From: Thelocarpon superellum
Taxonomy: Eukaryota
Assembly: GCA_026025795.1 (NCBI GenBank)
Contig: JAPEUG010000019.1
Coordinates: 62,001 to 90,382, forward strand
Length of the DNA: 28,382 nt
Direction: 5' to 3'
Under the pieces are notes generated by a model. The model was not told the DNA's origin. It worked only from the letters and a program-made list of their open reading frames with translations, and made no database searches. Shown one piece after another: positions 1 through 27,558 of the stretch. Made by a program: the position numbers and the translations under genes. Within the stretch, counting starts at the first letter, position 1. Each line of letters begins with the position of its first letter.

Positions 1-22
1 ACACATGCAGTCATACAGCCCT

Positions 23-3000
23 CTAAGCATTTCCGTCTCCCTCCGTTCCTCCCGATCGCTCTCTCACCCACGTAGCAGCGCGATTCTCAACCTCCTGCAC
101 CCTGCCCGTCGAAGAAGGCAAACGTACCTCAAACTCGCGCCATCGTTTGAAGAATGCGCGGGCCGGCTTGGGTTTCAAGCCCGGCAGAGCGACGATCCGC
201 GCGAAAAGGTTGCGGATCCTTTCGTCTCTGCCTCCCTCGTCCTGCCCTTCTCCGCCTTCCCTGTCTCCTTTCTGATCAGTTCTCCCCGTCTTGCTCATCT
301 CTAGATCGAGTAGTACGTTCCACAGATCCCATCGCTTGGGGAAATTGGATAACACGCCCTCGAATAGGGTACGGCCTCGTTCAGCGTCGCCGCTGGCCGA
401 GTGGAATTCAAGCGAGGCGAATTTTGTCGTCGTGGCCACGTGTGTGTGCGGTGGAAGGGCTTGCAAGGCTCGTGGGAGGAGAGATCGTGCCGTCCCCGGC
501 GACGATAGCGTCTGCATGTGGAAGGTCGCTGCGTTATACCAGATCGATGGCGACTGGGAGAATTTCTTGACCATGGCATCGAACAGGCTCTTGGCTTGCT
601 GTTCTGTTGTTAGTGGAGTGGATCCTGAGGTGAAATGCGATAATCTCACCTCCTGCTTCCCCGATTGAATGTAGATGCTCGCCAGTCGTTCATGAACCTC
701 TTGCGCGTCATTATACTGACATGCTCGCTTGAACACGTCCTCCACCGTGTCGTCGCTGCCGTAGGTGTTCTCGAGGTTGAGCAAACCAACCCACACATTC
801 AGCTTCTCCGTCTCCTCGCGCACGTTGATCGTCTGAAGAGCACGCTCTGCTGTCTCTCGAGCCTGACCAACCTCGCTGAGCTGCAGGTAAGAAGCCATGT
901 ATTGGAGCCAGAGAGAGGACGAGTCCGGTTGTCCGAGCAAGAGACGTTCAAAGTCCTCGCTCGATCGAGGCCCTTCGGCATCGAGCTCACCCGTTTGATC
1001 AACCTTGATCTCCGCTCGCCGTCGTTTCTTCCGTTTCGGCGCGTTGGTTTCGTCGTCGTCCATTTCCGACTCCAATCCCGTGCCATCCTGGTCGAGAACC
1101 GACCCAGTCCAATCAAAGCCTGTGGCGCGGAGTCCATTCCGCGGCTTCGTCATTCCTGTAGGCTCCTCGACCGCCACTCCGCCCCCTTCCACGCCTTCGT
1201 CCCTGTCTTCACCCTCCACTTCTTCCCCCTCAAACTCTTCATCTGCATCTCCTAACATGACTCCATCCATACCATCCTCGGAATCGTCACTTTCATCAAT
1301 TGCTTCATTCCCGTCAACGAAATAGGACGCTTTCAACCCAAAGCTGATTCGTCGCTTCTCTGGTTCCACCTTCAACACTTTTGCCTTGACCACATCTCCC
1401 TCCTCGTAGAGTTTCGTGATATCGCCCACTCGCTGATCGGCAATCTCGCTGCGATGACACAGTCCACTGACGTTGGCGGAATGATCGACCACGATGAAGA
1501 CACCGAATGCCTCCACCTTTCGTACTTTTCCGGTGACGACTTGTCCCACCGAGATGTCGTCAAAGGTGGTAGGAGGAACGTAATCCTTATCAATCACCGA
1601 AACCTTCAAACTCATCTGCGCGTGATTGAGCAGAGAATCGACCGCGGTGATCTTTCCCTTGACGAGTTGGCCCTCTTCAAAGCCTGACTTCCAATCTTTA
1701 ATGAACGAGTCCGATAGGTCCGAGACGCGAACGTAAGCCGTCACCTGCGGCCCCAGGCTGACAAACACTCCGGTATCGGCGACATTCTTGATGAATCCTC
1801 GGACCACGTCGTTGACCTTGAGTTGATCGATCGCCAAGATCTCGGGGTCTGTGACAGGGAAGGACGAGTTCAGCACCCGAGAGGGTCGGGTAGACAGCCA
1901 CATCTTCTGGTTTGAGACATCCAGCTCCGTCACGCACACCCGTACAATCTCGTTCTTCCGGTAGCCGGTCGGATTGGCCTTGGAGTAGTCGTCCGCCAGG
2001 TCCGTCAGCCCGACATGGCCCGAGGTGGTCTCACTTAGCTGGACGATGATGGATCGCTCCGTCACTTTGGTGACGCGTCCGGGGATCACCATGCCCTTGG
2101 CCAAACTTGCAAATCCGGTCGTACTCGAAGTCATGGATCGCGCCGAGAGGTCAAGCCGATGGCTTGCGACATCGACGTGCGTGACGTGCACCTTGAGCGC
2201 CGATCCCACGGGAAAGTTCTTCTCCATGTCTTGCAGCAGCGACACGTCATCCGACACGTCGAGATGTCGCAGGCGCCCACGCACATTCGGTGACAAGTTG
2301 ACCCAGAGGTAGTCTTGGGCGATATTATTGATAAAGGCCACCCATGTGGAACCCACCGCCACCTTATTGAGGGTCAAATAATCGGGGTTGAATGAGGTTA
2401 GTTCACTGGGCTTCGCCGAGAGCTCAAACACCGGCACCTTCGCGCCGCGATGCGTAATGGGCAGGAAGCGGTGATTTCGCGAATCATGAAGGCCGAGAAT
2501 GCGGACAAGTAGGACGTCGTGAGTGTGGAAGCGGCGGAGGGGGTGCTTCCGGTCTTTGATTTCATCCCACGAATCAAACACTTGCGAGACGTCTATTCGT
2601 CCCTGCACGTTGTCCGCCAGCTTCACGTTGATCTGGGTCGCCTTGATGGAGACGATTCGCGCCTTCGTGAGCTGTCCCAGGGACCATTGTTCCGGAGATG
2701 TCACGCTGGGGTCAACGGGGTTGATGATTGCCTCCGTCGAGCCTGTCTTTGATGACGATGCCGTCACCTCGTCCGTCATGGACAGGACGAAGCGTTGCTG
2801 GGAGTGGTCGAGCGATTCGACCGCGGCCGTAATTGATTGGTTTCGACGCAGGCCAAAGTCTGGCAGGTGACGAGACTCCTCGGGCAGATTTCGACCCGGC
2901 AGGATGCTCGTGAGATCAGCGGCAAACCGGACAAAGACGTCGGTCGGGGTCACGTTGCTGACGAAGCCATGCACGATGCTGCCTTCGGTGATATCCTCGA

Positions 3001-5589
3001 ACGAAGTCACCAAGCGGCCCGCCTGCGCATCGGCCACCAAGCTGGGTTTCCCGGACAGGATGATGAGTCGCTTCGCCTCCTTCTTCTGCAGGACTACGAG
3101 ATCATTGAGCGTCTGGCCAACGCGCACTCGTTTATGTGCCGACGCATTCTTCTGCTCCGACCCATCTGTCAGGTGTCCGATGACCATGGTCGCTTTCAGA
3201 CTCGACCCAACAAGCTCCAGGGTGAGATCGTCAGCGGATTTCTCCGACACCTTGCCACTCACGACGCTTCCGATCTTCAGCGCCTTCAGCTCGGCCATCT
3301 GTTGCTGTCCCAGCGCGGTGAGGTCGCGGCAGGAGACTGTCATCTTCTGGGCCCGCGCATCGACCGACAAGACATGGACCGTGACCACCTGACCCAGGCG
3401 AAAATGCTGGACGGGATCTTGAATGTAGGCTTCACTCATCTCCGAGACCGGGAGGAAGGCTCGAACAGAGGCGTAGAACTGCACCACGGCACCAGAGGGC
3501 AGAATCTTGACCAGTGTGCCAGGAGACTGTGCATTGGGCATCACCTCATCGTACGACGTGAAGATGGGCGCATCGGAGTGGACGAGAGACTTCTTTAAGG
3601 TGAGCCGCAGCTGTCGTTTTTCGGGATCGGTGGAGAGAACGCGGGTGGTGACGGTCATGCCCTCGCGGAATTTGCGCTCGGGATGTGACAGGGCGACGTC
3701 AGCCATGTGCATGTCCGGCACGAGACCCGTGATACCGTCGGCAAGATTGACCAAGAGTCCGCCAACGCCGTCCGCGTTGAGCATGAGTTTCTCGACCGTA
3801 CCCTTGACAACCTGGCCAACCTCCACATCCTCGAGGCGCAGAAAGGGCTGCTGGAGCACGCGCTCCTGCATGGACGCCAGATAGGTGGCATCCATGGGAT
3901 TATATCCGTAGATGCGGGCGGTCTGGATCGATCCTACCTTGTACGGCCCCGTTGTCTCTGCGAGGGTGTCGACCTTCTTGTCGGCGATTTTTGAGATGTG
4001 GACAAACGCCGGCACACCCTGGATCCCGGTGTCGAGGAATAGCCCAAAGCCAGGGACCACCTTGACGACCTTGGCTTGTTCCATGGTGGAGGAGAGCGGA
4101 AGAACGTCGACGGGAGGATGCGACTGTCCATCACGTGGTACGGTAAGGGGCGAGAGGGCGAGCAGATGATGCAACAGGGAGAGACCCAGCTTCTTGGGTT
4201 CCACGGTGGGAAAGGTACAGACGATGCGGCCCTTGACCTTTTGTCCCACGGCAAATCGCTTGGTGAGAGCCTTGGCGGATGCACATGCGCCTGAGTGCAC
4301 GAGGTCGGCGGTGACGTCCAGCAAGCCCATGACTTTTCCCGCGAGACCTGTACTGGTCACCTCTGCGACCAGAAACTCGACGGCGGTGCCCGGGAGGAAG
4401 GCATCGATTGTGGGTGCGGTACTGAGGAAGGCGGCTTTCTTGAGATGGCCCATCTTCAGTGGATCCGCGGACAATTTGACGGTGTTGCCGTTGGCACTTT
4501 GGCCCGACACCATGCAAAGGACGACGGCACCTGGCTCCAGCGGAGGATGTGAGGAGGAACGGCCGGTCTGCTTGGAGGACATGAAGCCCCGCAGGGAGGC
4601 ATCGCCCAGGCCCACGTTCATGACGAGACCGTGATCTTCCACACTGACGACTGAAGCCTGGACGGTGTTGTTGACAATCAACTCGGACCTTGACAGACCT
4701 TCATTGACCAGCCGCGGGTTCACCGACAACTCGATCCGTCTCTTTGCCGGCACCGTCACCGGTCCCGTGGCCGAGGCCTCGTCCGTGGTGGACGTGACAC
4801 GGGCGCGGAAGAATTGGCCGAGTGTGAACAGCGTGTTGAGATCAAGATCATCGTCTCTTGTGGATCCAGCATCGTCGCCCTCCTGATCATCGAGGTCGCT
4901 GTCATCCTGAGCCAGGAGTCTCTCTAGCCGTTCGTTCACCTCGTCAGATACCGCGGTCAGTGGGATGTACCCCGTCAGGTTGTTCGGGAGGGCCAAAGCG
5001 ACATCATGCCGGTTGATTTCGACCACTTGGCCCAAGATTAGAGAGCCGGGTACCAGACGCTTTGCCTCATCAGCATTCATCCGCGGCAGTGACTTGGATT
5101 GCTTACTCGGTAGCCTAGGCCTTCAATCCGTACGCTTGGCTCCTCTGCCTTTGGGACTGTTTCCTTCTTCGACTTGGATCGAGACTTGGTCTTATGCTTC
5201 ACCGATGTCGGCCGTGACTCGGCCGCATCGCCGTCGTCATCATCATCTTCCGCCGGTCGATTGCGAGATGCCTTGGGCTGACTTTGCTCGAACAGGACGT
5301 CGCGGGTAGCATCAGCCTTGATCTGTTTGTGCTCCAACGGCGTCAGGACGCTGGCGCCGCCACGGGGAAAGGCCGCTTCTTCTCCGCGGATGAGGGAGGA
5401 GGTAATGGGAGTCTTGTGGATCGGCGGTGGGGCGGACTTGGTGGCGGCATGCAGCCCCGCATCCTTCTCGGGCGGGAGCGAGGTAAATGTTCTGGACTTT
5501 TTTCGAGCATGACCGGCTTCTGGCGCGGTCTTGGAATTGGGGAGCTTTGCATCTTTCAGCACACTACTTTTGCGCTTCAGGGGCGCCAT
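23..5589 (-). CDS. RRP5: rRNA biogenesis protein Rrp5 (tandem S1 RNA-binding domains + C-terminal TPR/HAT repeats); 3 exons 5589-5107, 5059-650, 598-23; ~1822 aa
   Basis: The N-terminus has the [17 protein letters not shown] motif, followed by many S1 repeats (e.g. [29 protein letters not shown]). The C-terminus has [20 protein letters not shown] and [23 protein letters not shown]. Intron 5106-5060 (GTAAGC..GCTGAT..AAG, 47 nt) joins ORFs 5077-5589 and 23-5080 in frame. A second in-frame intron lies at 649-599 (GTGAGA..CTAAC..CAG, 51 nt). Confidence 0.96.
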
Positions 5590-6261
5590 CAGCTACTGTG
5601 GGCACAGTGGCTAGCACTGGATCTCTGTCCAGGTCGACATCTTGTTGACGGAGACAGAACGGTCACTGATGGCCATGGCTGAATCCAGGTCCAACGAGAT
5701 TTCGTACTGTCCGCCAAGGAAAGATGTGGGCGACTCTCCGGCCGACGTAGTGCCAAGATTTCGCCACGTGACGAGGTTCCTCCGTCCATGTTGAGGGCCA
5801 ATGGTGGCTCTCGCTTCGATAGCGGTTTGTATGAAGGTACAATGTGCGGCAATGGTAGTACCATCGTAGAGTACTACTCTTAGGTGGACCCGCTTTGGGG
5901 TCCACTGATAGCGTCCAAGCTCCCTGGAGCTCGCCGTAGCCACGCTCTCCTAATGTCTTAGCGAAGCCACTCACCGAGCCGCAGTTACCTACAGCTAGCT
6001 ACAGTTGGCTGCAAGTTACGTGCCAGTTACGTGCCTCGTGTCACGACGCGATCCACACGCGAAGGGAGGGACTCTGCCAGTGGCCAATGGAGCCCGACCC
6101 CGGCTCACCACCTCGCCGACCCTCTGCCTCCCTGTTCCGTCCATCATGATGTGGCGACCGTGATCGTGTCAAGATGTCTACAGGGTTCGAATGCGAATGC
6201 GAATATTGTTGCGAGTCACTGTAGCCGGGACGTGGACCTGTGCCTTGTATGATCAATCCCC
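5590..6261. promoter_or_regulatory. Bidirectional promoter region RRP5/CDT2 with an E-box (CACGTGAC 5765-5772) and two MCB-like ACGCGA sites (6046-6051, 6057-6062)
   Basis: The two genes are head to head and the motifs are read directly from the sequence. cdt2 is an established MBF/MCB target in fission yeast; function here is inferred. Confidence 0.5.
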
Positions 6262-8526
6262 ATGTTGTCCCCTCATACGGCCTCGTCGCCGGCCACGGCC
6301 CCGTCGGAGAATGGCGAGGGTGGCAAGCCCAAGAAAGCTCCGTCGGTCACGCCCCGCACCTTTCGCCGCTTCTTCACCCCTCGATCCTCCGTCACCAAGT
6401 CCGGCCACCTCTCGGCGGCGCGTCAGGCGCTGCGCGATATCACCACCCCCGCGCTGAATGGTCCTCATCGTCGCCACCACGCTGTTCTGGGGCCGCTTGC
6501 CCCTTTCCCTGACCTCTCCGTACCAGATGGCAAGAACGAAGGTGCACACCCAGCTCCGCACGGGGAGAAGAGACGGATTGCTTTGTCGCCCGATCCCTTG
6601 AGCCCCGACCATCGTGCGTCACGCAAACGACGGACGACCACGGCCACGGCCACGGCCACGGCGTCCTTTATTGTGGCGGAGGACCGAGACGGGCACGCAT
6701 CATCACAAACCACACTGGACCTGGACGACTCGGCGGACGAAGATGATGTACATCAAACAACAAGGAGGGCTCATGCACTCGACCACCGACTCCCTCGAAG
6801 ATCCGTCGCCAGCTTCCGCGAAACGTCCATCAGCGCTCGCCTCCTTCAGCGGAGCTTTGAGGGGCTTGGCGGCCGATCGATCCCATCTTCCTGCGCCTCA
6901 TGGCAGAATGAAACGGCCGATTTCTTCAGCCGAGCGGACGATTCGCATGCATGCACGAGTGTGGCACGGCCTGGTCGAGTCCCACCCTTCTGTGCGGCCA
7001 GCTGCAACACCAATGCCCTAGTGGCCGTCGGCGACGAGCAAGGTGGGATCCGACTACTCGAGTCGGCCAAGGCCATGGGCGGTGACGCCTTCCTGGGCTT
7101 CCAGGCGCACGACAATGCCATTTTGGACCTGTCCTTTTCCTTCGACGACAAATTCTTGGCCACGGCATCAGGAGACCAAACGGCGAAAGTCATCGACATG
7201 CGCAGCCAGCGAGCGGTGGCGTCATTGGAAGGGCACACCTCGTCGGTCAAACAGGTCCGCTTCCAGCCAGGTAGCGGCTCGAACCACATCGTCGCGACGT
7301 CGAGCCGCGATGCCAACGTTCACATTTGGGATCTGCGATGCAGAGGCACCGACGGGCCCGTTCGTCGGCTGTACACGTCTTTGACGCCCGCGGATGAGTG
7401 CGCCGAAGCCCTGGGCATAGCCCGCGCCACGACCTATGTATGCCCCGTCAACAGCATGGTCGACGCCCACCCGGAACGTCGACCAGCGCGAAACCAGCAC
7501 GGCCTTGCACCGAGACCCTCCGGGACAGGGTCAACGGAGCCCACCTCTCGAGGCGAGTCGCCCGGCTCATCCGTTACGGCGCTGAGCTTTCTGCCTCCCG
7601 GACGCGAACACCTCCTCTTGACCGCGTCGGAAGGTAACGCGTGCATCAAGCTCTGGGACCTGCGTACCTCACACCACCCCCGCCGCCGCGGACGCGCCGT
7701 GCCCCTCTCTACCACGCGCCAACCCGACAGCCACGACAAGTACCGTCACTTCGGCGTCAACGCGCTCGCCCTGAGCGGCGACGGCGCACGTCTATACAGC
7801 CTGTGTCGCGACAACACCGTGTACGCGTATTCGAGCAACCACCTCATTCTAGGCCACGCGCCCGAGCTCTCCTCCCTGAACAATCGACCCCGGCGCTCCG
7901 GCGGCAACGGCAAAGAAGGCCTCGGCCCTCTGTACGGCTTCCGGCACGAGCAAATGCACACGGCCACCTTCTACGTCAAGCTGAGTCTGCGCAAGGCGCA
8001 GGACGACCGCAGCGAGCTGCTCGCAATCGGCAGCAGCGACGGATGCGCCGTCTTGTTCCCGACGCACGAAAGCTACCTGAACGAATCCGCGTACCCGCCG
8101 AAATCATCCCCTTTTGCCACCTCCACCACCATCTCTCCCACAGCACCAATAGACACGCCTTCACCCACGCCGCCCAGTAGTGGTACGCGCGGCGCGCTCA
8201 CCCGCTCCACGAGCGGCACGGGGCTAGGACCAGGGCAGGGGCAGGGGCAAGGGCTCGCCGCAAGGCTCCAGGACACGATCCCAATCTACGGGCACGGCAC
8301 GGTTTTAGGACACGGCCACACGCGCGAAGTGACGGGCGTGGCGTGGACGGTGCGCGGCGACCTTGTGAGCGTGGGCGATGATTTCCTGGCGCGCTGTTGG
8401 CGCGAAGACGGAGCCGAGGCGCGCGATCTGAGACGTTATGCGGGGCTCGAGGGTCGTGGGTGGGGTTGTGGATGGGCGGAGGTCGAGGAGGGGTTTGATG
8501 ACGATGAGGATGAGGATGGAAGTTGA
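6262..8526 (+). CDS. CDT2: WD40-repeat protein Cdt2/DTL, substrate receptor of the CRL4(Cdt2) ubiquitin ligase; 754 aa, apparently intronless
   Basis: WD40 repeats include AHDNAILDLSFS..LATASGDQT, GHTSSVKQVRF..SRDANVHIWDLR, IKLWDLR and GHTREVTGVAW. It also has the TFYVK motif typical of Cdt2/DTL and the fungal N-terminal TPRTFRRFFTPR. Confidence 0.9.
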   Translation: MLSPHTASSPATAPSENGEGGKPKKAPSVTPRTFRRFFTPRSSVTKSGHLSAARQALRDITTPALNGPHRRHHAVLGPLAPFPDLSVPDGKNEGAHPAPHGEKRRIALSPDPLSPDHRASRKRRTTTATATATASFIVAEDRDGHASSQTTLDLDDSADEDDVHQTTRRAHALDHRLPRRSVASFRETSISARLLQRSFEGLGGRSIPSSCASWQNETADFFSRADDSHACTSVARPGRVPPFCAASCNTNALVAVGDEQGGIRLLESAKAMGGDAFLGFQAHDNAILDLSFSFDDKFLATASGDQTAKVIDMRSQRAVASLEGHTSSVKQVRFQPGSGSNHIVATSSRDANVHIWDLRCRGTDGPVRRLYTSLTPADECAEALGIARATTYVCPVNSMVDAHPERRPARNQHGLAPRPSGTGSTEPTSRGESPGSSVTALSFLPPGREHLLLTASEGNACIKLWDLRTSHHPRRRGRAVPLSTTRQPDSHDKYRHFGVNALALSGDGARLYSLCRDNTVYAYSSNHLILGHAPELSSLNNRPRRSGGNGKEGLGPLYGFRHEQMHTATFYVKLSLRKAQDDRSELLAIGSSDGCAVLFPTHESYLNESAYPPKSSPFATSTTISPTAPIDTPSPTPPSSGTRGALTRSTSGTGLGPGQGQGQGLAARLQDTIPIYGHGTVLGHGHTREVTGVAWTVRGDLVSVGDDFLARCWREDGAEARDLRRYAGLEGRGWGCGWAEVEEGFDDDEDEDGS

Positions 8527-8819
8527 TGAGGCGAAGACGGACGGCGTCCGTCTGACGACGAGCATGGTCTTGCGGCGCTCGTTTGGTTCAAAATGGCGGA
8601 CTTTGCTTCCATGCGTGTGGATGCGACAGGACAGAACAGGGCAGGACAGATACCCCTGCCGTTGGGCGTCTACTCGTACACCTAGATATAGAGCCTCTGA
8701 ATTGGTGCTCCCCACATCCCTTTGTGATTGGAAGAATGCAAGATGCCCCCGTTCCTTTGACGCCACCAATAAGTCATCCGGTCATGAACGCCCTTTCTCG
8801 TGATATTAGTCGGAGTCCA

Positions 8820-9959
8820 TCACGGAAGCAAGGGCTTCTCGAGAGACATGGCACTCAGCGGCCAGTCCAGCCAATGGTGCAGCGAGGGGTCCAGCATCCG
8901 GTGAACGGTGGAGAGGATGCGAGCAGACCAGCCGTGGATCCACCAGTAGGAATCGAGGCGATGGAGGAGCACGCTGTACTGGGCGAGGATGATGAGGGCC
9001 TTGGCGTGGCGTTGCTCGAGCAGCTCCACGTAGCTGGGGAGCACGGCGCTCGGCCACTTCAGGCCGTTGTTGACGCGGCTCAGATCTGGATCGGTAGATT
9101 CCATGCGCTGGAAGTTCTCCTCCAGTTCGTCGAGGGCGCTGGTGCACGCCTTCTTGACGGTGCTGGATTCGTCCGCGTCAACGCAGTGCTGGCGAAAGGC
9201 GGCAAGGTGCTCATGTACGTCCGTGGGTGTGGTAAGGGGTTGTCCGGTGGCCTCGCCGGCCTGGAGCCGGCAGAGCAGCCGCAGCTGGCCCGCTTGGATC
9301 CACTCCCACGTGGGAAGTAGCAGGGAACGGCTCCCGCGGATCAATTGCAGCCAGCCCGTTGCGCTCGTCACACTTTCCAAGAGCCCCAGGGTGTCTGGAG
9401 ACGTGGGCGAGGCAAAGGCCAAGATCACCAAGAGCGCAGACAAGGCGAAGAGGGTGTTGCAATTGGCGGGCCTGACGTGGGCTAGCGCAGGGCGAAAGAA
9501 GCCCAGCGCCGCGTCCTGATGCATCGTGGCTTCAATCTGGTAGTGGCGGGCGGCATCGGGTCGAAGCATGGCCAGGTGCTGTGCCGAGAGGGCGAGGATA
9601 CCTCGTAGCAGAAAGGGCTGGCTGAAGCCTTCTTGCGGCACCACGATCTGCCAGATGCTTTGCACCGCAGGGAGGTCGCTGAGGGTGAAGCAGGTCACCG
9701 TGCTGAAATGATGGAGCAGCTCAAGATCGGTCACGCGCGGCAGCATCGCCAGCTCCGGGGTCAGCGTGCGTGCGGGACTGCAGGATTGCGAGACCAGAGA
9801 GGCCTGGGAAGCGTTCGTCGTGGCGGGGGAGGGCGGGGCCCTGTCCGACCCCTCTCGACGCTCCTTTCGCGCACGTTGAGCATATCGACGCTTCGACGCT
9901 CGTTGAGCGTTCAGTGCCTCTTCCTCCGTGCGATGAAGCCGAGGACGACCGGCAGGCAT
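8820..9959 (-). CDS. Upc2/Ecm22-like fungal transcription-factor regulatory (sterol-binding-type) domain protein lacking a Zn2Cys6 cluster; 379 aa, intronless
   Basis: The ATG at 9959 is in a strong CACCATG context (the track's start at 10010 is TTG). Motifs DLELLHHFST, IWQIVVPQEGFSQPFLLRGILALSAQHL, ANCNTLFALSALL, WLQLIRG, WP and ALIILAQYSVLLHRLDSYWWIHGW..WLDWP are typical of Upc2-like C6 proteins. Confidence 0.85.
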   Translation of the reverse strand: MPAGRPRLHRTEEEALNAQRASKRRYAQRARKERREGSDRAPPSPATTNASQASLVSQSCSPARTLTPELAMLPRVTDLELLHHFSTVTCFTLSDLPAVQSIWQIVVPQEGFSQPFLLRGILALSAQHLAMLRPDAARHYQIEATMHQDAALGFFRPALAHVRPANCNTLFALSALLVILAFASPTSPDTLGLLESVTSATGWLQLIRGSRSLLLPTWEWIQAGQLRLLCRLQAGEATGQPLTTPTDVHEHLAAFRQHCVDADESSTVKKACTSALDELEENFQRMESTDPDLSRVNNGLKWPSAVLPSYVELLEQRHAKALIILAQYSVLLHRLDSYWWIHGWSARILSTVHRMLDPSLHHWLDWPLSAMSLEKPLLP

Positions 9960-10554
9960 GGTGCACGGGCACAGGCCAGATGGGCTGTGGTCAGGTTGAA
10001 AAGGATTCAAGGCGGCCCCCCGAGGCCATGTCTGTCATCTAGCGGTCTTGCCCCTCATTCGTGGATAGCCACATGTCCGCGGGTACCTGAACGACCTGTA
10101 TGTTCTTTGCCCACACGAGGTGACCTTTCCGCTGTGCGACTGGCTGTCTCCATCGAAGCGAGCAGCCACGGAAATCGCGAGTCTACCAGGAGAGAAATCT
10201 AAGGTACCAGGTACCATACCCGCTATGATGGCCTGTGACCACGAGTCTTCTCGGATGCTCGACGCTTCTCACGGCGCGTCGACCTGACCGGAGCCGCACG
10301 AGGATAGGCGGACTCCGCAGCTCGTGCTCGTACTCGGGACCTTCGATCAGTGTAACCCAGGATTTATATCTACTGTGGGAGCGTCCCTGAGCGTCGAACA
10401 AAATTCGCTTGTTCGTCCCGCATTCCTTGCTCCGCCCTCCGACCGGGGTCTGACCTTGGGAGCCCTCCACAGCCAATGAGGAGCAGGGGGACTGAACTGG
10501 CGAAATAAAGCGCCCTATCAACGGCCGGTCTCCTATCGATCCGGCGAAGGAAGA

Positions 10555-10581
10555 CGGTTGATCCGGTGGATCCGGTTGATC
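10555..10581 (+). repeat. 3 x 9-bp direct repeat CGGT(T/G)GATC in the divergent promoter of the regulator and RTA1
   Basis: The sequence reads CGGTTGATC CGGTGGATC CGGTTGATC. Confidence 0.8.
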
Positions 10582-10875
10582 GCTCCATCTCATACGGGTG
10601 GGAACGCGTCCGCAGGATGGAGTAAGGAGACGATTTGTTGACTGGTCGTACTGGCATGACCTTAGTTGCGTATGTGTGCTCTCGGATCAGCCTTGCATTG
10701 AAGTCTACAGACGTGTAGAAATCTATTCTCTTTGCCTTCTTGATGCATTAAACCGTCTGGGCCGCGAGCTGTTTCCCTACATAAGAAGGACCGAGGCCCT
10801 CCCTGGCCTCTGGGGCCACGCACTCTCTCAGTCTTCACACGCTCATTGTCTCGCACCCGTAGACGAAGACATACC

Positions 10876-11831
10876 ATGACGGACTTCAACACGGTCATCA
10901 ACGCTCCTTTCGCCTTCTACCGCTATTGGCCGTCCCTCGTCGCGGCCATCATCTTCACCGTCCTGTTCATCCTGACGACGGGCGTGCATCTCGCGCAGTT
11001 GATCCGCAACCGCACCTGGTACTTCATTCCACTCTTCATCGGAGGATGCCGTACGTGTCTATTCCCCGGATGGTTGTGGCATGGCACGCTGACCGGCTAC
11101 CAGTCGAGTGCATCGGATACATCGCGCGGGCCATGTCCTCGAAGCAAACCCCGGATTGGACGCTGGGCCCCTTCATCGTCCAAGCTATTCTGCTGCTCGT
11201 GGCCCCGGCCCTTTTCGCCGCCACCATCTACATGAGCCTGGGACGCATCATCCTCTCGGTGGATGGTGAGAAGGTGTCGCTGATCCGGAAACGCTGGCTG
11301 ACCAAGCTGTTCGTGGCGGGGGATGTCTTTTCGTTCCTGCTCCAAGCCTCCGGTGAGCCATTGCCCTCCCTGGATGACGCACTTTGACCCGCCCACTGAC
11401 GATCATCAGGCGGTGGCATCATGGCCGGCAAAACGGTCAAGGCCGTGAGCCTGGGCCAGAACGTCATCCTCGGCGGACTGTTTCTGCAGCTCATCTTCTT
11501 CGGCCTGTTCATAGCCGTGTCCGCCGTCTTCCAGATCCGGCTACAGAAGCGTCCCACGCCCCTCGCCATGTCTCTCGACAACCCGTGGCGCCAGCGCATG
11601 GCGGTGCTCTATCTCGCCAGCGCCCTGATCATGATCCGATCCATCTTCCGCGTGATCGAGTACCTGCAGGGCAACGCGGGATATATCCTCCGACACGAGA
11701 TCTTCCTCTATCTCTTCGACGCGGTGCTCATGTTGGGCGTCATGGTGCTGCTCAACATCAAGCATCCTGGTCGGATCGCGGCCATGTCTAGTCGCAAGAA
11801 TGGGTCCGACAGTGGCCTGCCGATGGCTTAG
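10876..11831 (+). CDS. RTA1: RTA1-family (Rta1/Rsb1/Rtm1-like) 7-TM lipid-translocating/resistance membrane protein; exons 10876-11050, 11104-11352, 11410-11831; ~281 aa
   Basis: Motifs include FYRYWPSLVAAIIF, GGCLECIGYIAR (spliced), LLVAPALFAATIYMSLGRII, TKLFVAGDVFSFLLQASGGG, IRSIFRVIEYLQG..HEIFLYLFDAVLM and HPG. Introns 11051-11103 (GTACGT..CTGAC..CAG) and 11353-11409 (GTGAGC..CTGAC..CAG) restore a single frame. Confidence 0.92.
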
Positions 11832-13050
11832 GCCCTGATGTTCTCGCATGAAATGGAAAGGGGATGGAGAATGGCAGAATAGACGGGGAGTGACAAGCGG
11901 TACACCTTTGACAGATTGCAGTGTAATAATGGGCATATCAGGGGTTAGACTAGCGATCAGAGGACGGAGTATGTATGAGCGTACTAATGGGGCCAAACCT
12001 ATGAGGACTCATGGAACAGCCTACATACCATTCTCGTTCATTCGTTCGTTCATTCATTCTACAGATCACGCGATCCGATCGATCGAAACAAAAGACGGTC
12101 GAGTCATTTCATCATTCTGGACTGAAGCGCGACTGATGACTCTGATGAACTCCATCTAATCGTCTACCGCCCGAGCCCCGTCCGTGTGCAATGCGTTGCG
12201 TTGCAGGGCCGGGCAGAGCACAGGAACAAGTAGGGTCGCGTCGGGTCGAATCGAGAGTCGATTGGGCAGGAAAAGAGGAAATGAAAGAATTGGTCATGAA
12301 GTGGAAAGGTATCGGGAAAGGAGTAGCCCTATTCGGTGGTGGCATTTTTGGGGGGAAGGCTGAAGCTGATCAGGCGTCAATCAGATTCACAGCCGGGGCA
12401 GAGGTGAGTTGGGTGATTGAAGTGTGAAGGTTGAAAGGCTCACTCGTTCATCTAAAAGGGACGAGAAGGCGGATGAAGAGGTCGACAGGTCGTCTTGCGC
12501 CTTGACAGGTGCGTAGGCGTAGGCGTAGACAGAAGAATGATGATGTGTCCTGGATCCACTCTGAATCCGCTTCCATCCTCCTCTGCGCTTGAACATCTGC
12601 CTGCCTGCCTCTTAGGAACTTCTTCCTCATGCTGACTCGTCCGTCCATATGTGGCCTGTTGTCGGTCTAGGTAGCAATGACCGGGGATGCCGAATGGTGA
12701 TGGTCGAGAAGAGTGGAAGTGCAACAAATCGAATTGGCTTGGCAAAAGTTATGGAAAAGGCCGTCCGTCCGAGGGGGAAGAGGCAAAAACAATGCGCCTC
12801 GTAAACGCCAAATGTGGGGGGTGGGACGCATCCACAACCAAGCAGAGCCCATGCTCCGGGCAGCCAGGGTGAGAGCCAATGCTAGTGCAAAGAGCGAGAG
12901 GAAGTAGAAGGCCCACGCGCTGTTCAGTCCCGTTCCATGTCTGTGCAATGTGTAATCTGCAATATGCGCCGTGTCCTACCCGAGGTGCAGGTCAAAGATT
13001 CTCCGAAGACAGGCGCCGTCATCTCGTCGTCGTCGTCATCATCATGGTAC

Positions 13051-15425
13051 TCATTGGCGTCCGTCGTAGCGCCATGGGTTGATCACGTCATACGACGCGG
13101 CCCCAACGACCGAACCCATCGCGGTCAAGAGCGACGGGCCCGACGTCTCCGGGACCGTGAAGCCTTTGGCCATCTCCCCTTCGCAGTAGAGCGAGGCGCG
13201 TTGGTAGCGACGGTCGGCGTACTTGTCGTAGACAACGGCATGGTGCTGCTGCGGGTTGTCACAACATTCATGGAGCATCGTCAGGAGGGGCCGCAGCTGT
13301 CCAAAGGTATAGTTGGAGTAGTGGATGTGCGCCGGGGTCTGGCCATGGTCAGCGGGAGCACACGAGGATAGGGAGGGGCGTCGGAATGTGGGCGGGCCAT
13401 ACCCAGTCACCCTTCTTCAGCATCATCCGCGCCAGACAGTGGGCGCCTGCCGCGACGAAGCTCGGGGGACAGCCGACGAAGCGCTCGTCCATGATGGCCA
13501 CCTCGAGAAAGTACTTGGCCAGGGTGCGGATCTCGACGTCGTAGTCATCCGCCTTGCTGATGCGGCGCAGGAAGCTCATCGGGCCGGGCCATCCGAGCTC
13601 AAAGGAGAGCATGCTCAGCATGAAGCGCTCGGCCTTGAGGATCTCGTCAACGGTGTAGCCGCCGTCAACCATGTAGGCGATCTCGTGCACCGACGGACAG
13701 TTGATCTCCTCGTACTTGGCCGCGATGAAGATGGCCGTAGCCCCGACCAGCTGCAGCTTGCCCAGCGACACCACCTTGCACGACAGGAAGCGGTCGATGT
13801 AGTTGGCGCAGAGGAAGAGCGTCTCCGGTAGCAGGTTGAAGCGATGGTGCACCTGCATGATCCACTCCATGAGTACCGACCGCATCGACCACTGGATCTC
13901 CGCCTGGTTGTCCATGTAGTGCGCGTCGGGCAGCATCTTCGTCTCAAGCTCCTTCATGTACTGGAAGATGTCGTCGCCGTACTCCGCCACCATGGTGGGG
14001 TCCAGGTGCTCCTCCTCCACGTCCTCGGGCACGCGGCACGCCTCGACCACCTCCTTGGCGAGGGCCAGCTCCTTGCGGACCTTGGCCGTCACCTTGGGCG
14101 GCAGCACCGCTGTCGCCCCGCCCGTCGTATTGTCGCCGCCCGTCACGTTGTCGCCGACGGTCAGGTTCTCTCCACGCGACGGGTAGGAGCGCGCGGTCGT
14201 GTAGCCTTCCTCGTCGTACAGGTCCTCTTCCGGATCACCCTCCGCCTCGTCGTCCCAGTACTCCTCGGGCTCCGTCAATTCGGCCACGGCCAAGAGGTGG
14301 CTGGCGTATTCGGCCTTGGCGAGGGCCTCTTGTTCGAGGTGTCGGTCCCGCTCCGCCAGGAGCTCGTACATGACCATCTGGTTGTGTTCCTCTTGCGAGA
14401 GGGCCAAAGACTTAGATGGGCCATACTCCTTCTTCGCCGGAGCTGCCTCCGCGGACGCGTCGGGGCGCGCCGGGAACTGATGGTGCAGGATCTGGTGCGC
14501 ACGTTGTTCCGCTCGTACGTCCGCGACGTGGTCATCCTGGTCGTCGTATTCGTCATGGTCGTCGTGGTCCCGTGTCATCTCCGTCGGGGAGGGGCGGATC
14601 AGCTTGCTCTGAGTCTTGCGTAAGACGGGCACCTCGGGACGCAGGTGGGGCTGGCTCTTGTGGTGCCGCGGGGCCAGGCTCTGGTGCACGGGTGCTGTGG
14701 GATTCGCCGCTTGCGTCTCCTTCAATGCCTGCACCACCGGCTTGGAGGTATCGCTCGCGGGCGAGTCGTGATAGACGAGCGTATGACGCTTCCCGACGGG
14801 TCGGCGGGTGTTGGCCGCGTGGGCTGCTGGCTGTGGCTCCGACTGAGACGGCTTTGGGGCTGTGGTCCCCGTCGCAGCCGACGACACATTGCTGAGGAGG
14901 GCCTTGACGCCGGAGAGGGACAAGGGTCGCTGGGCGGGGCGTCGCAGCGGCGCTGGTTTGTTCTCGGCCTCAAGGGGGAGAGCTTTCTCCAGGACGGCGA
15001 GGGGATTCTTTAGGCCCAAGACCGAGTCGTCGTGGCTGGGCTGAAACGTTCGAGCCGTGCTGTTGGCCGTGTTGCTGACGTCGCCAAAGGCGGTACGCTT
15101 GGCCGCGGCCTTCAGGCCTCCGGCGCTCAGGAGGGTGGGAAGGGCGCCGGTGGACTTGTAGCGTTGGTGGAGCGACTTGCCCGCGCCAACCGGCACGTTC
15201 TCGTCCGCTCGCACTCGGATCGCTCGTGCAGGACGCTGCGGCTGCTCAATGGCCGGGTCAGTTCCGGATCGTTTGCGAGAGGGGGTAAAACGGAGGGGGA
15301 ATGAGAGCTTCATCTTCCGAATTCCTGGCCACGCTCCACCATCACGGGAAGTTGCACAGAAGGAGGGTCCTTGGGGGGAGCGAGGGGGAGGAGCTGAGAG
15401 AAGAGCAACCTACTTTGGCGTCCAT
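13051..15425 (-). CDS. CLB3: B-type (G2/M) cyclin, Clb3/Clb4-like; exons 15425-15414 (MDAK), 15241-13403, 13338-13051; ~712 aa
   Basis: It has the cyclin box WSMRSVLMEWIMQVH..LLPETLFL..KLQLVGATAIFIAAKYEE and GWPGPMSFLRRISKADDYD, plus a destruction box RTAFGDVSN (15097-15071). Intron 15413-15242 (GTAGGT..CTGAC..CAG) gives MDAK|PQRP..RADEN. Intron 13402-13339 (GTATGG..CTGAC..CAG) joins the C-terminal exon. Confidence 0.9.
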
Positions 15426-20494: not shown

Positions 20495-22855
20495 ATGGAG
20501 GTCTCCAACCTCCTGACGCAGGATCCCTCCCTGCGCGCCCGGCGCCCTGTCACCCCACAGTCTTACCACGCCTCGCCCCAGACGAGCCCCAAGCCCAAGC
20601 ACGTCGCCTTCGAGTTGTACTTCCCCGAGTCCCCCAATTACCGGGCGCGACTCCCGATGCGGGTCCAGATCTTCCCGCATGACACTACCGACTCCATCAT
20701 CACCACGGTGAAGAACTTCTACGGCCTCTACGAGGGCCCCGGTGGCGCCAAAGGCGTCAGTTTCGAGGACGAGCAGGGCAACACCCTGATCGCCCGGTAC
20801 GAGAACTTCCGGAACAACATGGTCGTCTACGTCCGCGTGCTGCTCGAGGAGGCCGGCACGCCCAAGGCCTACGGCCCGCCCGAGCACCCGTCGGCGTCGC
20901 CCAACCACTTTCAGAGCGAGCCGCACGCCATGCGACCGCCTCAACCCGCCCAAGCCCTCACCTACGGACAAACGCCATCGCGCCCGGCCTCGCGTACCAT
21001 GCGCAAGCGCAGCGTCTCGCCGCCGCTCGGTCGCGGCCGTCGCAGCGTCTCGGCCAACACCCGGCCGGATCCGAGCAAGCCCAGCCGCTCGCGCACCGGC
21101 CTGAAGAGTCGTGGATCGAGCACGCACGCGAGCGGGCCCGATGTCAACGGCGACGCGATGAATGGCTTCAGTGATAGCGATGGCGGTCAGGGCTCCGTGT
21201 CGGGCTCCCGCAAGAGCAGGAGCGAGCAGCTGGCCAGCGCCGAGATCAGCCTGGACAACATCGTGGAAGGCGGTCGGCGGAAGCGCGCCAAATTTGAGAG
21301 CTCGGTGAGACCTCCTTCCCGGCGAGGCCTGACCCGAACTGACCGGTCGCGCGCGTACTAGGAACTGCCACTCTTCGTGCCCCCTCAGGTACCCATGACC
21401 ACATCATCTTCCTCCGTCTCGCCCGCCCGTCGTGCCGCACCCCTTCACGGTCTTGGACCCTTTGGCCAAGCTTCGCAGCGACCGGTGTCATACTCGCAGC
21501 CGCTCCCGTCGCCACAGAGCATCGGGCACGCCGACCGCCTTTCGGGCCACCGGGCCGCCGCTGGATCATCATACTCCACCCCCGCGGGCAACCAACACGG
21601 GCACCACCTGCGGAATCGGATGAGCGCCTCATACCCGCCCTCCCGCCGTGGCATGGGGAGTAACCCCTTCGGCCACCATAGTGGGATCCTCCCCACGCCA
21701 GACCCCACCGTCGCGAGCTGTATCTCCGACGAGGACGTGGCCATCCAGCTCATGCGTCTGGGCGATGCCTCGAACATCTCGCACGACACCCGCCACTCGG
21801 CCTCGACCCTCGACGACGGCTTCAGTGGTGCCGCTGACGCCGCCTCCTCCACGGGCGCGACGAGCGACAGCGACATGGAGGACGAGGACGAGGATGAGAG
21901 CGACGCGACGGAGCCGTCGGGCCTCCCCGTCGGTCCGCCGCGCGAGCCGGCGGCCTCGAGCCCCATTCCCTTCCCGGGTGCGGTCAAGCGGAAGCACAAG
22001 CATCTCGATGACATCCTGCCCAGCTTTGACAGCACCGAGCCGAGCGGCGATGAGGGCGCTCGTGTCGTGGGCAACGGGTACGGCGACGAGCACGACCGGA
22101 AGCGCATGCGTTTTGACGTGTCGGGCCCCCAGTTGCGTGACGCGTTTCTCGAGGAGCGCGAGCCGCTCATCAAGATGGATCCGAGCGTGGCCGAGGCAGC
22201 CTTTGACGGCCGCACTCCTGTCCGCAGCCTACACGGCGCGGTCAAGAGCAGCAAGGTCGCCAAGGCCCGCCCGCTCGGCGCCAACAAGATCAAGGTCAAG
22301 CCCTCCGCGGGCACGGTCGCGGGCGCGAACGCTAAGGTGCCCATCTCACCCGCCTCCCTCACGGCGCCATCGCGCAAGACGTCTAACGCGTCGACGATCA
22401 ACTTCCAGCACCCGCTGGGTGAGGATGAAGAGGATCTGTCGTCAAAGCCGCGCTGCCAACGTTGCCGCAAGAGCAAGAAAGGCTGCGACCGGCAGCGCCC
22501 GTGCCAGCGATGCACCGACGCCGGCATCGGCATCGATGGCTGCGTCAGCGAGGACGAGGGGAACGGTCGCAAAGGCCGCTTCGGTCGACACATGGGCGTG
22601 GTGGTCAAGAAGGGACCCGGCCACCAGCATAGCCATAGCCAGGATCACGGTCACGCCGATGCCATGGCGAGTGGCCCCGCCCCTGCTTCCGCCCCCAGCG
22701 TCATCCGTGGATCGGCTCATGGTACGATGGATGGCCTCGCCAACGGCATCGCCGATGGACCTGTCCATGCTGCCGTCAATGGATCACCAACTCCTTTGGC
22801 CGGCCCAGCCATGACCCCGCTTAGCCTCGACAAGAACAAAAAGCGCAAGCGTTAA
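20495..22855 (+). CDS. Zn(II)2Cys6 (C6) transcription factor with a C-terminal zinc cluster; exons 20495-21304, 21362-22855; ~767 aa
   Basis: The zinc cluster CQRCRKSKKGCDRQRPCQRCTDAGIGIDGC (C-X2-C-X6-C-X5-C-X2-C-X9-C) is at 22454-22543. NLS-like GGRRKRAK and a terminal KNKKRKR are present. Intron 21305-21361 (GTGAGA..CTGAC..TAG) joins FESS|ELPLFVPPQVP. Confidence 0.9.
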
Positions 22856-24266: not shown

Positions 24267-26737
24267 ATGGCCCCCGCCACACCTTCACGGCGGCCCACTC
24301 GAGGCTCCGGTACTGGTTCCCCCGCAGCGACTGCCCCACCACCGTCTCCCAATGCGTCGCAAGCAACTCGACACGCGGACGAGGCTGAGGCCGCAATGGC
24401 AGCGGATCTTGAGATGTCTGCGGGACCTTCCGTGGTGTCGACAAGCGCTCCGTCGTCCGCCGACCCCCGCCAGCCCACCGCTCGCCTCTCTTCGCTCTCG
24501 CTCTCGCGCCGCGCGCCTGGCATGCCTCCTCCTCCGCTGGGCGAGAGCGGGCCCAAACCGCTCAAGTTCAAGCCCAAAGCTCCCATCCGACGCAGTCAGC
24601 GAGAGCGCGAGCTGGCCGAGCGAGACGAACAAGAGCGTATCGCGGCACGAAACACGGCCCGGAGCGCCGCTGGCCCGCGGCCTCCGGCACAGATGCCCTC
24701 TAGATCAGGTCGAGGTGGCGTTCGCGGCGTTGGTTGGATGCGTGGTCGTGGCCTGGGCCCGGGGCGAGGTGGGAACCGAGCGGGCTTTCATCCCGGCCGA
24801 GGTGGCTCCGGGTCGCGAGTGGGCGAGGGCGTGGCCAGCGGTCCGTTTGGAGCGGGCAGTGTCGTGACATGTGGGTAGTAGAGACTAGGCTGTGGTCAAG
24901 ACGGCTAAGTGACAAATAGCAACGTCTTCCAAGAAACGAAAGGGCTCCGGCGTGCCCAAAAGCGAGTCGTCACAGAGATCCACAGCAGCTCCGTCGACAG
25001 CCCAATGCGTGGGTCGTCCCTCGACCGTGCCCCGCATCCACAGCAACGAGATTCGCGGAGTGGATGGATTCAAACATGAAGGGGAGGAGATGGACCCGAT
25101 CTACGTTTCGTCCGAAGACGATGACGACGAGGCGGCCGGCCCGCGGGTTGACATTGAACATATCAATCTGGCGAGCGACGCAGAGGACGGAGAGGACCGC
25201 TTCAAGGCAGGTGAGGCCGAGCCTCGTCTAAGCTGGGCCCTCAAGCCCGTTCGCCTGGATCGTCGCGAGCACCGAGAACGGGCGCCAGGCGTGACGACGG
25301 ACGCGGGAGCCCCACGCTTTGCCGCATTGAAACGGAGGGCGCTCGAACGAGGTGCTGACGCCACTCCGTTTGTTGGGTCGGACGCCGAACACGAGAAGCC
25401 GTCGCGCAGACGGACGGAGAAGACCAGAGACGTGGAATACCTCCGGAACGAACGCCGATGGAAAGGCGTGTACGAGGTGGAGGGAGACCACGACGTGCGG
25501 GGTAAGCATCATGAGAACAACGGTGGCGACGGCCTCTCGACTCACCAAGGCGCAGTGAAGGACGAGCCCAACGACGAGGCCGATGCTGCTCTCCCCGCAA
25601 GCGTCCCCGCAACGTCCGACCCAGTCACTCGAGCATCAGCATCGCGGTCATCATCCCAACGAGGCCCACCGGCACCGACAGGGACGGACGAGGCCGAGAA
25701 GGAGGCGACGGAGGCAAAGATCGTCCAGCGCCGCAAGACCAGCTTCAAAGAGTCCAAGCCCGTGCTCCAGACGGAAGAGGATCGACAGGAATGGGCTCGT
25801 CGTGAATTGGACGTTAAGCTTCTCAGCGAGGAGCTGGGACAGCTGTATACGGACCCGGTGGCAAGTGGTCGAGACGGCGCAGGCGACATTCCCATGGTAG
25901 GTGGGGCGTGGTTCGTCAATCTTGGATCCCGTATTAATCCATGTGTAGGAGGGACCGACGACGGCAAATGGCGGACGTGGCTACTGCTCGCTCTACCTCT
26001 TCCAATTCCCGCCGATCCTGCCGGCGCTCTACGACCCAGTCAAGAAGGAAGACGGCGGCGCCGACGCAGACGCCGATGCAGACATGGAGGCAGACGGATA
26101 CGCAGGCCCCTCGACGAGCGAAGCACACACGTTACCGCGCACCTCGGCGCGCGTGTCCGGCGCCAGCACATCCAGCACCAGCGCCAGTGCCAGGATCATC
26201 AACCACCCAGCCCACCGCTCCGTCCTTGCAACTTCCACCGAACCTCGTCCCCAGATCAAAGCGGACCCAGACCACCACAAAAAAGGAGTCGCCGCCGCCG
26301 CCGCCGCCGCTGCCGCGACTTCACACTCCGGGTCAGGCTTAACCCCGCGCGCCTTTACGGCCAAAGACGCCACGTTACCCCGCGGCAAAGCGGGCAAACT
26401 GACCATCCACGCATCCGGTCGCGTGCTGCTCTCCTGGGGCGGCTCGAACACGCTTCAGCTTACCCGGGCAATTGACACGGAGTTTTTGCAGGATGTGGTC
26501 GTCTCGGATCTCAAGGGTGTGCTGGATCCTGATGCGCCGCCGGGTGCTGGGAGAGGTGGGACGGTCGGAGCGGGAAGAGGAGGAAGAGGAGGGGTGGGGA
26601 GTGCTGGTGGGGGTGCTAGTGCAAGTGCAGGGGCAAGTGCAAGTGGAGATGGCGGAGAGGAGAGGGGAGTGAGTGGCGGAATCGCGCGCATCGAAAGTAA
26701 ATTCATCGTGTCGCCCTATTGGGAGGATTTGCTCTAG
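24267..26737 (+). CDS. RPC4: DNA-directed RNA polymerase III subunit RPC4 (C53); exons 24267-24870, 24920-25501, 25556-25896, 25949-26737; ~771 aa
   Basis: The N-terminus has LKFKPKAPIRRS. LYLFQFPPILPAL and GKAGKLTIHASGRVLLSWGG..FLQDVV..KFIVSPYWEDLL match the RNA_pol_Rpc4 domain. Introns are at 24871-24919, 25502-25555 (in frame, less certain) and 25897-25948. Confidence 0.87.
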
Positions 26738-26799: not shown

Positions 26800-27558
26800 T
26801 CACTTCCCCATCGTCAAGAACAGACGATCCCCGACATCGCCCAAGCCAGGCCGAATCATGCCTCGCTCATCACAGGCATCATCGACCCCGCCCACCCAGA
26901 CATCGACGCCCTCGGCCCACTCGTCCGCGGCGCGCGCGACACCCTCTCGACTCGCCAACACCGCAATGAGCAGCACGCGGCGCACGCCCCACTCACGAAG
27001 GGTTTGTATGGCGGCCGCACTGGTCCCGCCCGTGGCGATGACAGGGTCGATGAGGATAGCGAGGTCGGCGGCGGCGGAGTTGACGGTGGAGCCGGCCGTG
27101 TGCTGGCCTTGCGCCGCGAGGGCGCCTGGCGTCGACTGCACCGTCGGGACGCCAGGCTCCGGGTGATGGTAGGGCAGGTTGTTGTAATATTCCACCGGCT
27201 GCAGGGTGGTCGGTTCCCTGAATAGACCGAGGTGATGCACGGGCACCGGGCGTGGCAGCAGCGTCTGGATGGCGGATACCATGCCCAGGCCGGAACGCAG
27301 CACGGGGACGAGGGCGACGCGCGCCGGCGAGATGGTCTGCGTCGCGTACTCGTAGCCCAGTGGGGATTGGTCCACGTCGCCACTGGCCACGGCGTGCAGG
27401 CTGTGCCCGAGTGCTTCGCACCCTACGATCAGCGCGATCTCGTGTACCAGTGCCTCGGTCGCGCGTGCGTCGGTGCGTGCTGATCGTAGTTGCGAAAGCT
27501 TGGCCTGGAGACAGGGGTGGTGGGAGATGTGCACATTTGCTGGGAGGAAGGTCGCCAT
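26800..27558 (-). CDS. Uracil phosphoribosyltransferase (Fur1/Upp family); 252 aa, intronless
   Basis: Motifs include HPCLQAKLSQLR, LVPVLRSGLGM, HHLGLFREPTTLQPVEYYNNLP, the PRPP-binding loop LIDPVIATGGT and the uracil-binding tail IRPGLGDVGDRLF. The ATG is at 27558 (the track's start at 27672 is not an ATG). Confidence 0.92.
   Translation of the reverse strand: MATFLPANVHISHHPCLQAKLSQLRSARTDARATEALVHEIALIVGCEALGHSLHAVASGDVDQSPLGYEYATQTISPARVALVPVLRSGLGMVSAIQTLLPRPVPVHHLGLFREPTTLQPVEYYNNLPYHHPEPGVPTVQSTPGALAAQGQHTAGSTVNSAAADLAILIDPVIATGGTSAAAIQTLREWGVRRVLLIAVLASREGVARAADEWAEGVDVWVGGVDDACDERGMIRPGLGDVGDRLFLTMGK

Follow-up and report, generated by a model that had tools for sequence, protein, structure and literature searches.

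The locus described here belongs to the fungus Thelocarpon superellum and consists of two divergently oriented genes on contig JAPEUG010000019.1 (NCBI GenBank assembly GCA_026025795.1). The window is the whole stretch of 28,382 nucleotides (nt) between positions 62,001 and 90,382 of the forward strand, and all coordinates count from its first letter. On the minus strand, an intron-less coding sequence at 8820..9959, stop codon included, encodes a Fungal_trans_2 regulator of 379 amino acids (aa) that lacks a zinc cluster and whose open reading frame (ORF) translation starts with MPAGRPRLHRTEEEALNAQRASKRRYAQRARKERRE. The protein has three parts. The basic N-terminal region (residues 1-37) contains a conserved motif, aa 1-31 (9867..9959, minus strand), in which a MPAGRP arm is followed by a basic helix with a conserved face formed by A15, A18, Q19, S22, K23, Y26 and R29. 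A disordered and poorly conserved linker, aa 38-75 (9735..9848, minus strand), connects it to an all-helical ligand-binding domain of the Upc2 type (Fungal_trans_2), aa 76-370 (8850..9734, minus strand).

The second gene lies on the plus strand and encodes a member of the RTA1 family. Its three exons occupy 10876..11050, with the ATG at 10876 and the donor GTACGT at 11051, 11104..11352 and 11410..11831, the last one including the stop codon. Both introns (11051-11103 and 11353-11409) are of the GT-AG type, and the spliced coding sequence of 846 nt gives 281 aa without internal stops. Exons 2 and 3 match the Pfam family RTA1 with E values of 1.4e-27 and 1.4e-32; the two matches exceed the cut-off of 24 with 97.1 and 113.4 bits and cover positions 7-87 and 98-205 of the 208 in profile PF04479, the profile of the RTA1/Rsb1 family of lipid-translocating exporters. 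Between the two start codons there are 916 bp (9960..10875), which presumably act as a shared promoter.

The first-pass annotation of this DNA, made from the sequence alone, had described the regulator as an Upc2-like protein whose Zn2Cys6 cluster has been replaced by a basic motif, and what it had observed in the sequence held throughout, including the absence of the cluster. Pfam found no Zn_clus match in the whole 379-aa protein, and the six-cysteine pattern CX2CX6CX5-12CX2CX6-8C, by which Zn2Cys6 proteins are recognised, is missing from its N-terminus. A single Cys is present in residues 1-75; with one Cys between M1 and the ligand-binding domain, no complete cluster is possible with the existing coding sequence. 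When positions 9900-11000 were translated in all three minus-strand frames, no CX2CX6C pattern appeared, and the sole CxxC, at 10997, lies outside the spacer and antisense to RTA1 exon 1. The 9960-10875 spacer is thus free of CxxC, which excludes within it an upstream exon carrying a full zinc cluster. The start codon itself is well defined. An in-frame stop precedes the ATG by 26 codons, the ATG stands in the context gcaccATGc, which the annotation had called strong, and all 13 orthologues, comprising 12 protein clusters and one metagenome ORF (L001), begin with MPAGRP at the same Met, with conservation beginning exactly at M1. In L001 the reading frame is interrupted by a stop 9 codons upstream of the ATG, and there is no AG dinucleotide in between. 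In conclusion, the regulator has neither a Zn2Cys6 cluster nor an upstream exon able to supply one.

The relatives of the regulator place this absence in context. A first search returned 81 proteins at E ≤ 1e-3 (8000 scored candidates). The close relatives, where named, come mostly from lichen-type ascomycetes (Vezdaea, Lecanora, Sclerophora, Bacidia and Alectoria; Vezdaea is classified in Pezizomycotina, leotiomyceta incertae sedis); relatives at a greater distance belong to Aspergillus, Penicillium, Fusarium and Trichoderma. Three matches start with MPAGRP, namely P0002 (50% identity), P0003 and P0004; among the remaining proteins, some have a Zn2Cys6 cluster at the equivalent place and many begin at the string DLELLHHF. 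A scan of metagenome contigs of the Joint Genome Institute (JGI) yielded 37 loci encoding relatives, of which only L001 holds an orthologue (41% identity over residues 1-374). When 85 ligand-binding domains were placed in a maximum-likelihood tree, the 12 rows with the motif fell into a single group (support of 98 in the Shimodaira-Hasegawa-like approximate likelihood ratio test, SH-aLRT), so that the motif requires one change; this is a quick, unrooted IQ-TREE analysis (LG+G4) that carries a long-branch warning and leaves out four rows without the anchor motif and two short proteins, P0084 and P0085, discussed below. The motif group sits in an unresolved fork with clades holding full or half zinc clusters, and zinc clusters are also present in the most distant clade of the tree. 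Loss of the cluster in the ancestor of the motif clade is the parsimonious, though not proven, reading of the tree.

The paralogues that retain both Zn2Cys6 and Fungal_trans_2 (for instance P0009 and P0010; L004, L009, L011, L027 and L032) have a ligand-binding domain homologous over its full length and a similar spacing from the N-terminal module to DLELLHHF, and some of them also adjoin an RTA1 gene, but their N-terminus is a six-cysteine cluster split by an intron before CDE. Alignment of the 13 orthologues with 13 zinc-bearing paralogues by hhalign joined the ligand-binding domains (probability 100%, E 5.4e-69, 39% identity) and began there, leaving the N-termini unaligned. An origin of the motif in situ from the second half of the zinc cluster is accordingly unsupported; MAFFT placed the RPR of the motif under the RPRC of the paralogues, just before whose CDE the family intron lies. 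The GRPR strings that L032 and L033 have upstream of their ligand-binding domains were also rejected as copies of the motif, as they stand after or beside ordinary zinc-cluster exons. In L033, a marine-sediment contig, the first exon of the paralogue (3-380) encodes the first half-cluster CLNCKRRKVK and the second half appears degenerate in the frames at 235-1404, so that this may be another lineage losing the cluster.

The intron also explains a confusing feature of the databases. It splits the zinc cluster between ...RKVK and CDE in L011 (4056-4670), L027 (771-1251) and L009 (~5700-6100), and because it lies inside the cluster, automatic gene models drop the first exon and many relatives look Zn-less. 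Among the 85 tree rows, 8 were scored as "half-Zn" and 44 as "none"; the half-Zn rows and many of the "none" rows are truncated gene models and not true Zn-less proteins. This raises the question of whether the regulator of the window is such an artefact, with a spliced Zn2Cys6 exon missed upstream, the more so as an AG dinucleotide lies 26-27 nt 5' of its ATG in an open frame. The residues added from this AG are not conserved, however, and with a single Cys between M1 and the ligand-binding domain the second half-cluster is absent whatever lies upstream; the spacer without CxxC, the conservation that starts at M1 in every orthologue and the L001 stop without an acceptor after it point the same way. 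The other form of this explanation, a decaying gene or pseudogene, is contradicted by the intact ORF in 13 of 13 orthologues and by the pattern of substitutions. Two moss-metagenome DNA runs contain a related strain that differs from the window by ~1-1.5% over 8500-12100. Between 8820 and 9699 this strain shows 13 differences, 7 synonymous and 6 non-synonymous, which over 214 synonymous and 662 non-synonymous sites gives a ratio of non-synonymous to synonymous changes (dN/dS) of ~0.28, a weak test given 13 differences only and a covered range that does not include the motif. Artefact and decay, already largely refuted, are thus very improbable, and the regulator gene is real and selectively maintained. 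The findings that the annotation itself had named as fatal to it, an upstream zinc exon, a decaying gene or the lack of any orthologue sharing the basic motif, were none of them made.

In place of the cluster, the 13 orthologues share a basic N-terminal motif, as the annotation had supposed for the window protein. As they share it from the first Met, the motif is no chance feature. Seventeen of its 31 positions are invariant (M1, P2, A3, G4, R5, P6, R10, E13, A15, A18, Q19, R20, S22, K23, A27, R29 and R31), and pairs of orthologues are on average 82% identical in it, whereas the ligand-binding domain reaches 59% and the linker, with one invariant column among 44, 46%. When members of the two deep subclades are compared with each other, the corresponding values are 67%, 42% and 25%. 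Judging by their spacing, helix positions 15, 18, 19, 22, 23, 26 and 29 would share one face.

The distribution of the motif is narrow. A profile of 45 columns built from four N-termini was run against 1,835,955,588 representative proteins and gave five matches at E ≤ 1e-3, three of which (P0002, P0082 and P0083) share the architecture of the regulator. The other two are marginal and short, P0084 (70 aa, E 5.8e-4) and P0085 (76 aa, E 7.7e-4). Both are rich in K and E and contain a loosely similar GRP-K-x-Y-x-T-x-E-E-A-x2-A string, present twice in P0084, which may represent a wider short motif or an effect of composition. When the profile was widened and longer proteins were searched by word index, 12 matches were obtained at E ≤ 10 (8000 candidates), all of 370-412 aa and starting with MPAGRP, 11 of them with PF11951 on record; with residues 1-40 as the query, the same kind of search returned only the query itself (1 match from 2 candidates). 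Apart from the two marginal short proteins, neither the profile nor the word-index searches found the motif on any other protein architecture. In the ESM Atlas, residues 1-40 gave no usable feature match, and their structural neighbours were unrelated single helices. No paper describing the motif was found by literature searches that did not use the motif string, and the accessible parts of two articles (PMC5415576 and PMC3998117) make no mention of Zn-less Fungal_trans_2 proteins. On this evidence the motif appears to have arisen once and to be specific to one small clade of fungi, most of them lichen-associated. A mitochondrial presequence seems unlikely, given the run E12-E14 and, within it, the invariant acidic E13. 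The invariant Pro, after removal of Met, could in principle also be read as a Pro/N-degron.

The C-terminal part of the protein was assigned by three lines of evidence. The Pfam match to Fungal_trans_2 (PF11951) exceeded the cut-off of 21 with 27.7 bits (E 1.6e-6) and ran over aa 80-214, corresponding to profile positions 1-125 of 384. Searching all PDB sequences with phmmer gave four chains of Upc2 ligand-binding domains as the only matches at E < 0.1, the best being 7vpu (E 4.4e-12) over aa 76-233; the fifth match was unrelated (E 0.73). Further, an AlphaFold2 model built from a 50-sequence alignment (mean predicted local distance difference test score, pLDDT, 85.5; predicted template modelling score, pTM, 0.76) comprises a helix at aa 12-37 (block pLDDT 90-92), a linker at aa 38-75 with blocks of 42-51 and a helical domain at aa 76-370. 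With this model as the query, Foldseek filled ranks 1-10 in the PDB with ligand-binding domains of Upc2, all at a probability of 1.00. Ranks 1-8 had template modelling scores, normalised to the target, of 0.57-0.64 over 281-319 columns with 18-20% identity; ranks 9-10, which are T4-lysozyme fusions, had 0.25-0.29, and all lower ranks had E > 0.6. The domain thus has the all-helical Upc2 fold over its whole length, the same as in Upc2/Ecm22, the sterol-sensing Zn2Cys6 proteins of Saccharomycotina (structures 4N9N, 7VPR and 7VPU), and the regulator aligns end to end with the 12 other orthologues.

The first-pass annotation was right about the type of this domain and too specific in making the protein an Upc2-like sterol sensor, since it is one of many Fungal_trans_2 paralogues and its identity to Upc2 is only 18-20%. 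The proteins closest to it are paralogues of lichen-type fungi, and orthology with Upc2 is unsupported; the domain has the Upc2 fold and belongs to a distant paralogue. The two proteins are alike in their layout, in which a linker connects a basic N-terminus to the ligand-binding domain, and they differ in that Upc2 has the Zn2Cys6 cluster that the regulator lacks, while the regulator, at 379 aa, is much shorter and begins with a different motif.

Upc2 is reported to form homodimers constitutively by means of the sterol-binding domain at its C-terminus, and its N-terminal bipartite nuclear localisation signal (NLS) is thought to be masked by ergosterol binding, as far as the available part of the source goes (PMC7397035). 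A homodimer is also predicted for the regulator. Its model scored 0.61 (ipSAE) against 0.00 for the best control. Among proteins with solved structures, this mark was attained by 21 of 30 pairs and none of 23 single chains. Since Upc2 dimers have been solved, the score may reflect the model's memory of them. The dimer runs agreed in at least 31% of contacts, with a partner pLDDT of at least 71. The confident interface, aa 76-87 and 104-118, is made up of the DLELLHHF helix and the next helices, and its columns are the most conserved of the whole family.

The pairing with RTA1, also put forward by the annotation, recurs in L001. There a regulator of 395 aa, starting with MPAGRPEIKRTQEDAKEAQRLSKRLYARR..., lies at 1589-2776(+), and a divergent RTA1 gene at 918..3(-) runs off the contig, with a spacer of 670 bp. 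The L001 RTA1 is 55.6-68.5% identical to that of the window by tblastn (68.5% in exon 1), compared with ~35-43% for the copies in L009 and L032, and the window RTA1 is thus one of several paralogues. When L001 was compared by tblastx with the whole 28-kb window, only the regulator and RTA1 matched, and the 6 kb beyond the L001 regulator gave nothing but scraps of ≤29 aa. By this comparison the pair stayed together while at least one flank changed, because the far side of L001 is unrelated to the window. Among the 37 loci, four have an RTA1 match in their flanks: it is divergent in L001, L008 and L009 and tandem in L032, the last three being loci of zinc-bearing paralogues. In Saccharomyces cerevisiae, Rta1 is a member of the family of lipid-translocating exporters, and the RTA1 promoter contains Upc2, Mot3 and Rox1 motifs, according to the part of the source available (PMC9697666). 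A weak hint that RTA1 is transcribed comes from RNA-library contigs of 151 nt from two studies, which cover 10654-10946, that is, the RTA1 start and 222 nt upstream, although DNA can be present in such libraries. The RTA1 5' contigs of two metatranscriptome runs (other studies) carry, at 10747 and 10750, two of the variants of the strain found in the moss metagenomes.

The reading preferred here, which has about an even chance of being correct, is that the protein is a dimeric, ligand-gated regulator of the adjacent RTA1 gene and that its N-terminal module serves for import into the nucleus and probably for contact with DNA. The regulator would descend from transcription factors with Zn2Cys6 and Fungal_trans_2 domains and would have lost the zinc cluster, and a clade-specific basic module of 31 residues, the MPAGRP arm plus an amphipathic helix, now stands at its start, joined by a flexible linker of ~40 residues to the Upc2-type domain. 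This domain may sense a lipophilic ligand and is predicted to dimerise through its first helices, including the family-wide DLELLHHF, in agreement with the homodimer reported for Upc2 in the available part of PMC7397035. The two basic modules would then leave the dimer side by side, allowing nuclear import and probably DNA contact, and the regulator would control the shared promoter and hence the neighbouring membrane protein of the lipid-translocating-exporter type.

Several results weigh against this reading. Neither the window N-terminus among Pfam families nor the motif profile among PDB sequences found a single match at E ≤ 10, and the possible memory effect in the dimer score and the small number of differences behind the dN/dS value have been mentioned above. 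None of the six loci of the nearest zinc-bearing clade (L002-L007), all with full 6-kb flanks, has an RTA1 gene. Two RNA-library runs gave no contig on the regulator gene and no joints, a lack of cover that is uninformative. The pair is found in only two genomes of the motif clade, and their spacers have no repeat in common and share four 9-mers (4.15 expected) and one 10-mer (0.94 expected). The last observations, in which no conserved promoter element emerged from the two spacers compared, are those expected if the adjacency of the transcription factor and RTA1 has no regulatory meaning and the neighbours were kept together by descent, and both RTA1 and zinc-cluster-type regulators are large families in filamentous ascomycetes. 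Contrary to this, the same divergent orientation has been kept at 41% identity of the transcription factor while the DNA beyond it is unrelated, and RTA1 also adjoins three loci of zinc-bearing paralogues. A meaningless adjacency is on balance unlikely.

The absence of a shared spacer element, together with the fact that no DNA-binding family matches the motif, also fits a regulator that does not bind DNA by itself, the alternative raised in the first-pass annotation. Here the motif would be a nuclear-import signal or a protein-contact helix, and the protein a co-regulator that pairs through DLELLHHF with a Zn2Cys6 paralogue, to which it would be a partner or a dominant-negative subunit. The predicted interface falls on columns that are invariant or nearly so (L79-F85) in zinc-bearing and Zn-less members, which makes mixed dimers conceivable, and the motif is rich in K and R like an NLS, a signal that is also N-terminal in Upc2 (available part of PMC7397035). 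An NLS needs only basic residues, however, whereas the invariant positions of the motif include M1-P6 and the small residues A15, A18, S22 and A27 on one face, and conservation is higher in the motif than even in the ligand-binding domain. Such a co-regulator, the chief rival of the preferred reading, is possible and rather doubtful.

About the same tentative standing is given to the most far-reaching view, in which the 31-residue module is a new autonomous DNA-binding element, with the GRP arm in the minor groove, a single basic helix in the major groove and the two helices paired by the ligand-binding domain instead of a zipper. If this were true, a Zn2Cys6 factor would have been rebuilt as a zipper-less, bZIP-like regulator in the style of a nuclear receptor and dedicated to the adjacent lipid exporter. 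The basic regions of bZIP proteins follow the signature N-x2-A-A-x2-[SC]-R, with Q in the Yap form, and the invariant Asn is their criterion. As in the basic regions of GCN4 and Yap, the motif has a continuous basic helix and the spacing A15-x2-A18-Q19-x2-S22-K23, but the signature Asn is an invariant Ala, Arg is Lys, and a disordered linker takes the place of the leucine zipper; no Pfam match to bZIP was obtained at E ≤ 1 for the whole protein or at E ≤ 10 for the N-termini. Likewise, the invariant G4-R5-P6, which stands beside basic residues where a DNA-binding-like helix starts, recalls the minor-groove arms of AT-hook proteins and of similar GRPR arms (HMGA, the arm of Hin recombinase), although the core of the AT-hook is R-G-R-P and that of the motif A-G-R-P, so that it falls outside PF02178. 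AT_hook was absent from the whole-protein Pfam matches at E ≤ 1 and was matched in only one, unspecified, of the eight members whose N-termini were scanned. With "AT-hook-like" and "bZIP-like", the annotation therefore named resemblances only.

The surroundings of the pair correspond to the housekeeping setting noted in the annotation: RRP5 at 23-5122 (-), a WD40 protein at 6262-8526 (+), a cyclin at 13349-15409 (-), RPC4 at ~25949-26737 (+) and UPRTase at 26800-27783 (-). No biosynthetic cluster surrounds the pair in the window. Between 16378 and 24878 there are several long GC-rich open frames (220-520 aa) without a Pfam match at E ≤ 1e-4. An ordinary zinc-cluster gene is present ~12 kb from the pair: the open frame 21362-22855 contains a complete Zn2Cys6 cluster, CQRCRKSKKGCDRQRPCQRCTDAGIGIDGC, at 22448-22540 (+), and the 497-aa frame around it had no Pfam match at the same threshold.

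The meaning of these observations reaches beyond a single gene. They point to a whole clade that has kept the sensor domain and swapped its DNA-binding end for an undescribed motif conserved more tightly than the sensor. For the study of the family they also carry an annotation warning, as many "Zn-less" relatives in the databases are truncated models caused by the intron inside the cluster. Should the motif bind DNA, it would count as a DNA-binding module of a new and minimal kind and illustrate the way in which a transcription factor may exchange the part that reads DNA; should it not, nature would have supplied in this clade a collection of Zn-less proteins that partner or antagonise zinc-cluster factors. 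The pairing with RTA1 provides a ready-made candidate target and a simple two-gene system for lipid or xenobiotic sensing in lichen-type fungi, a group with little genetics to draw on.

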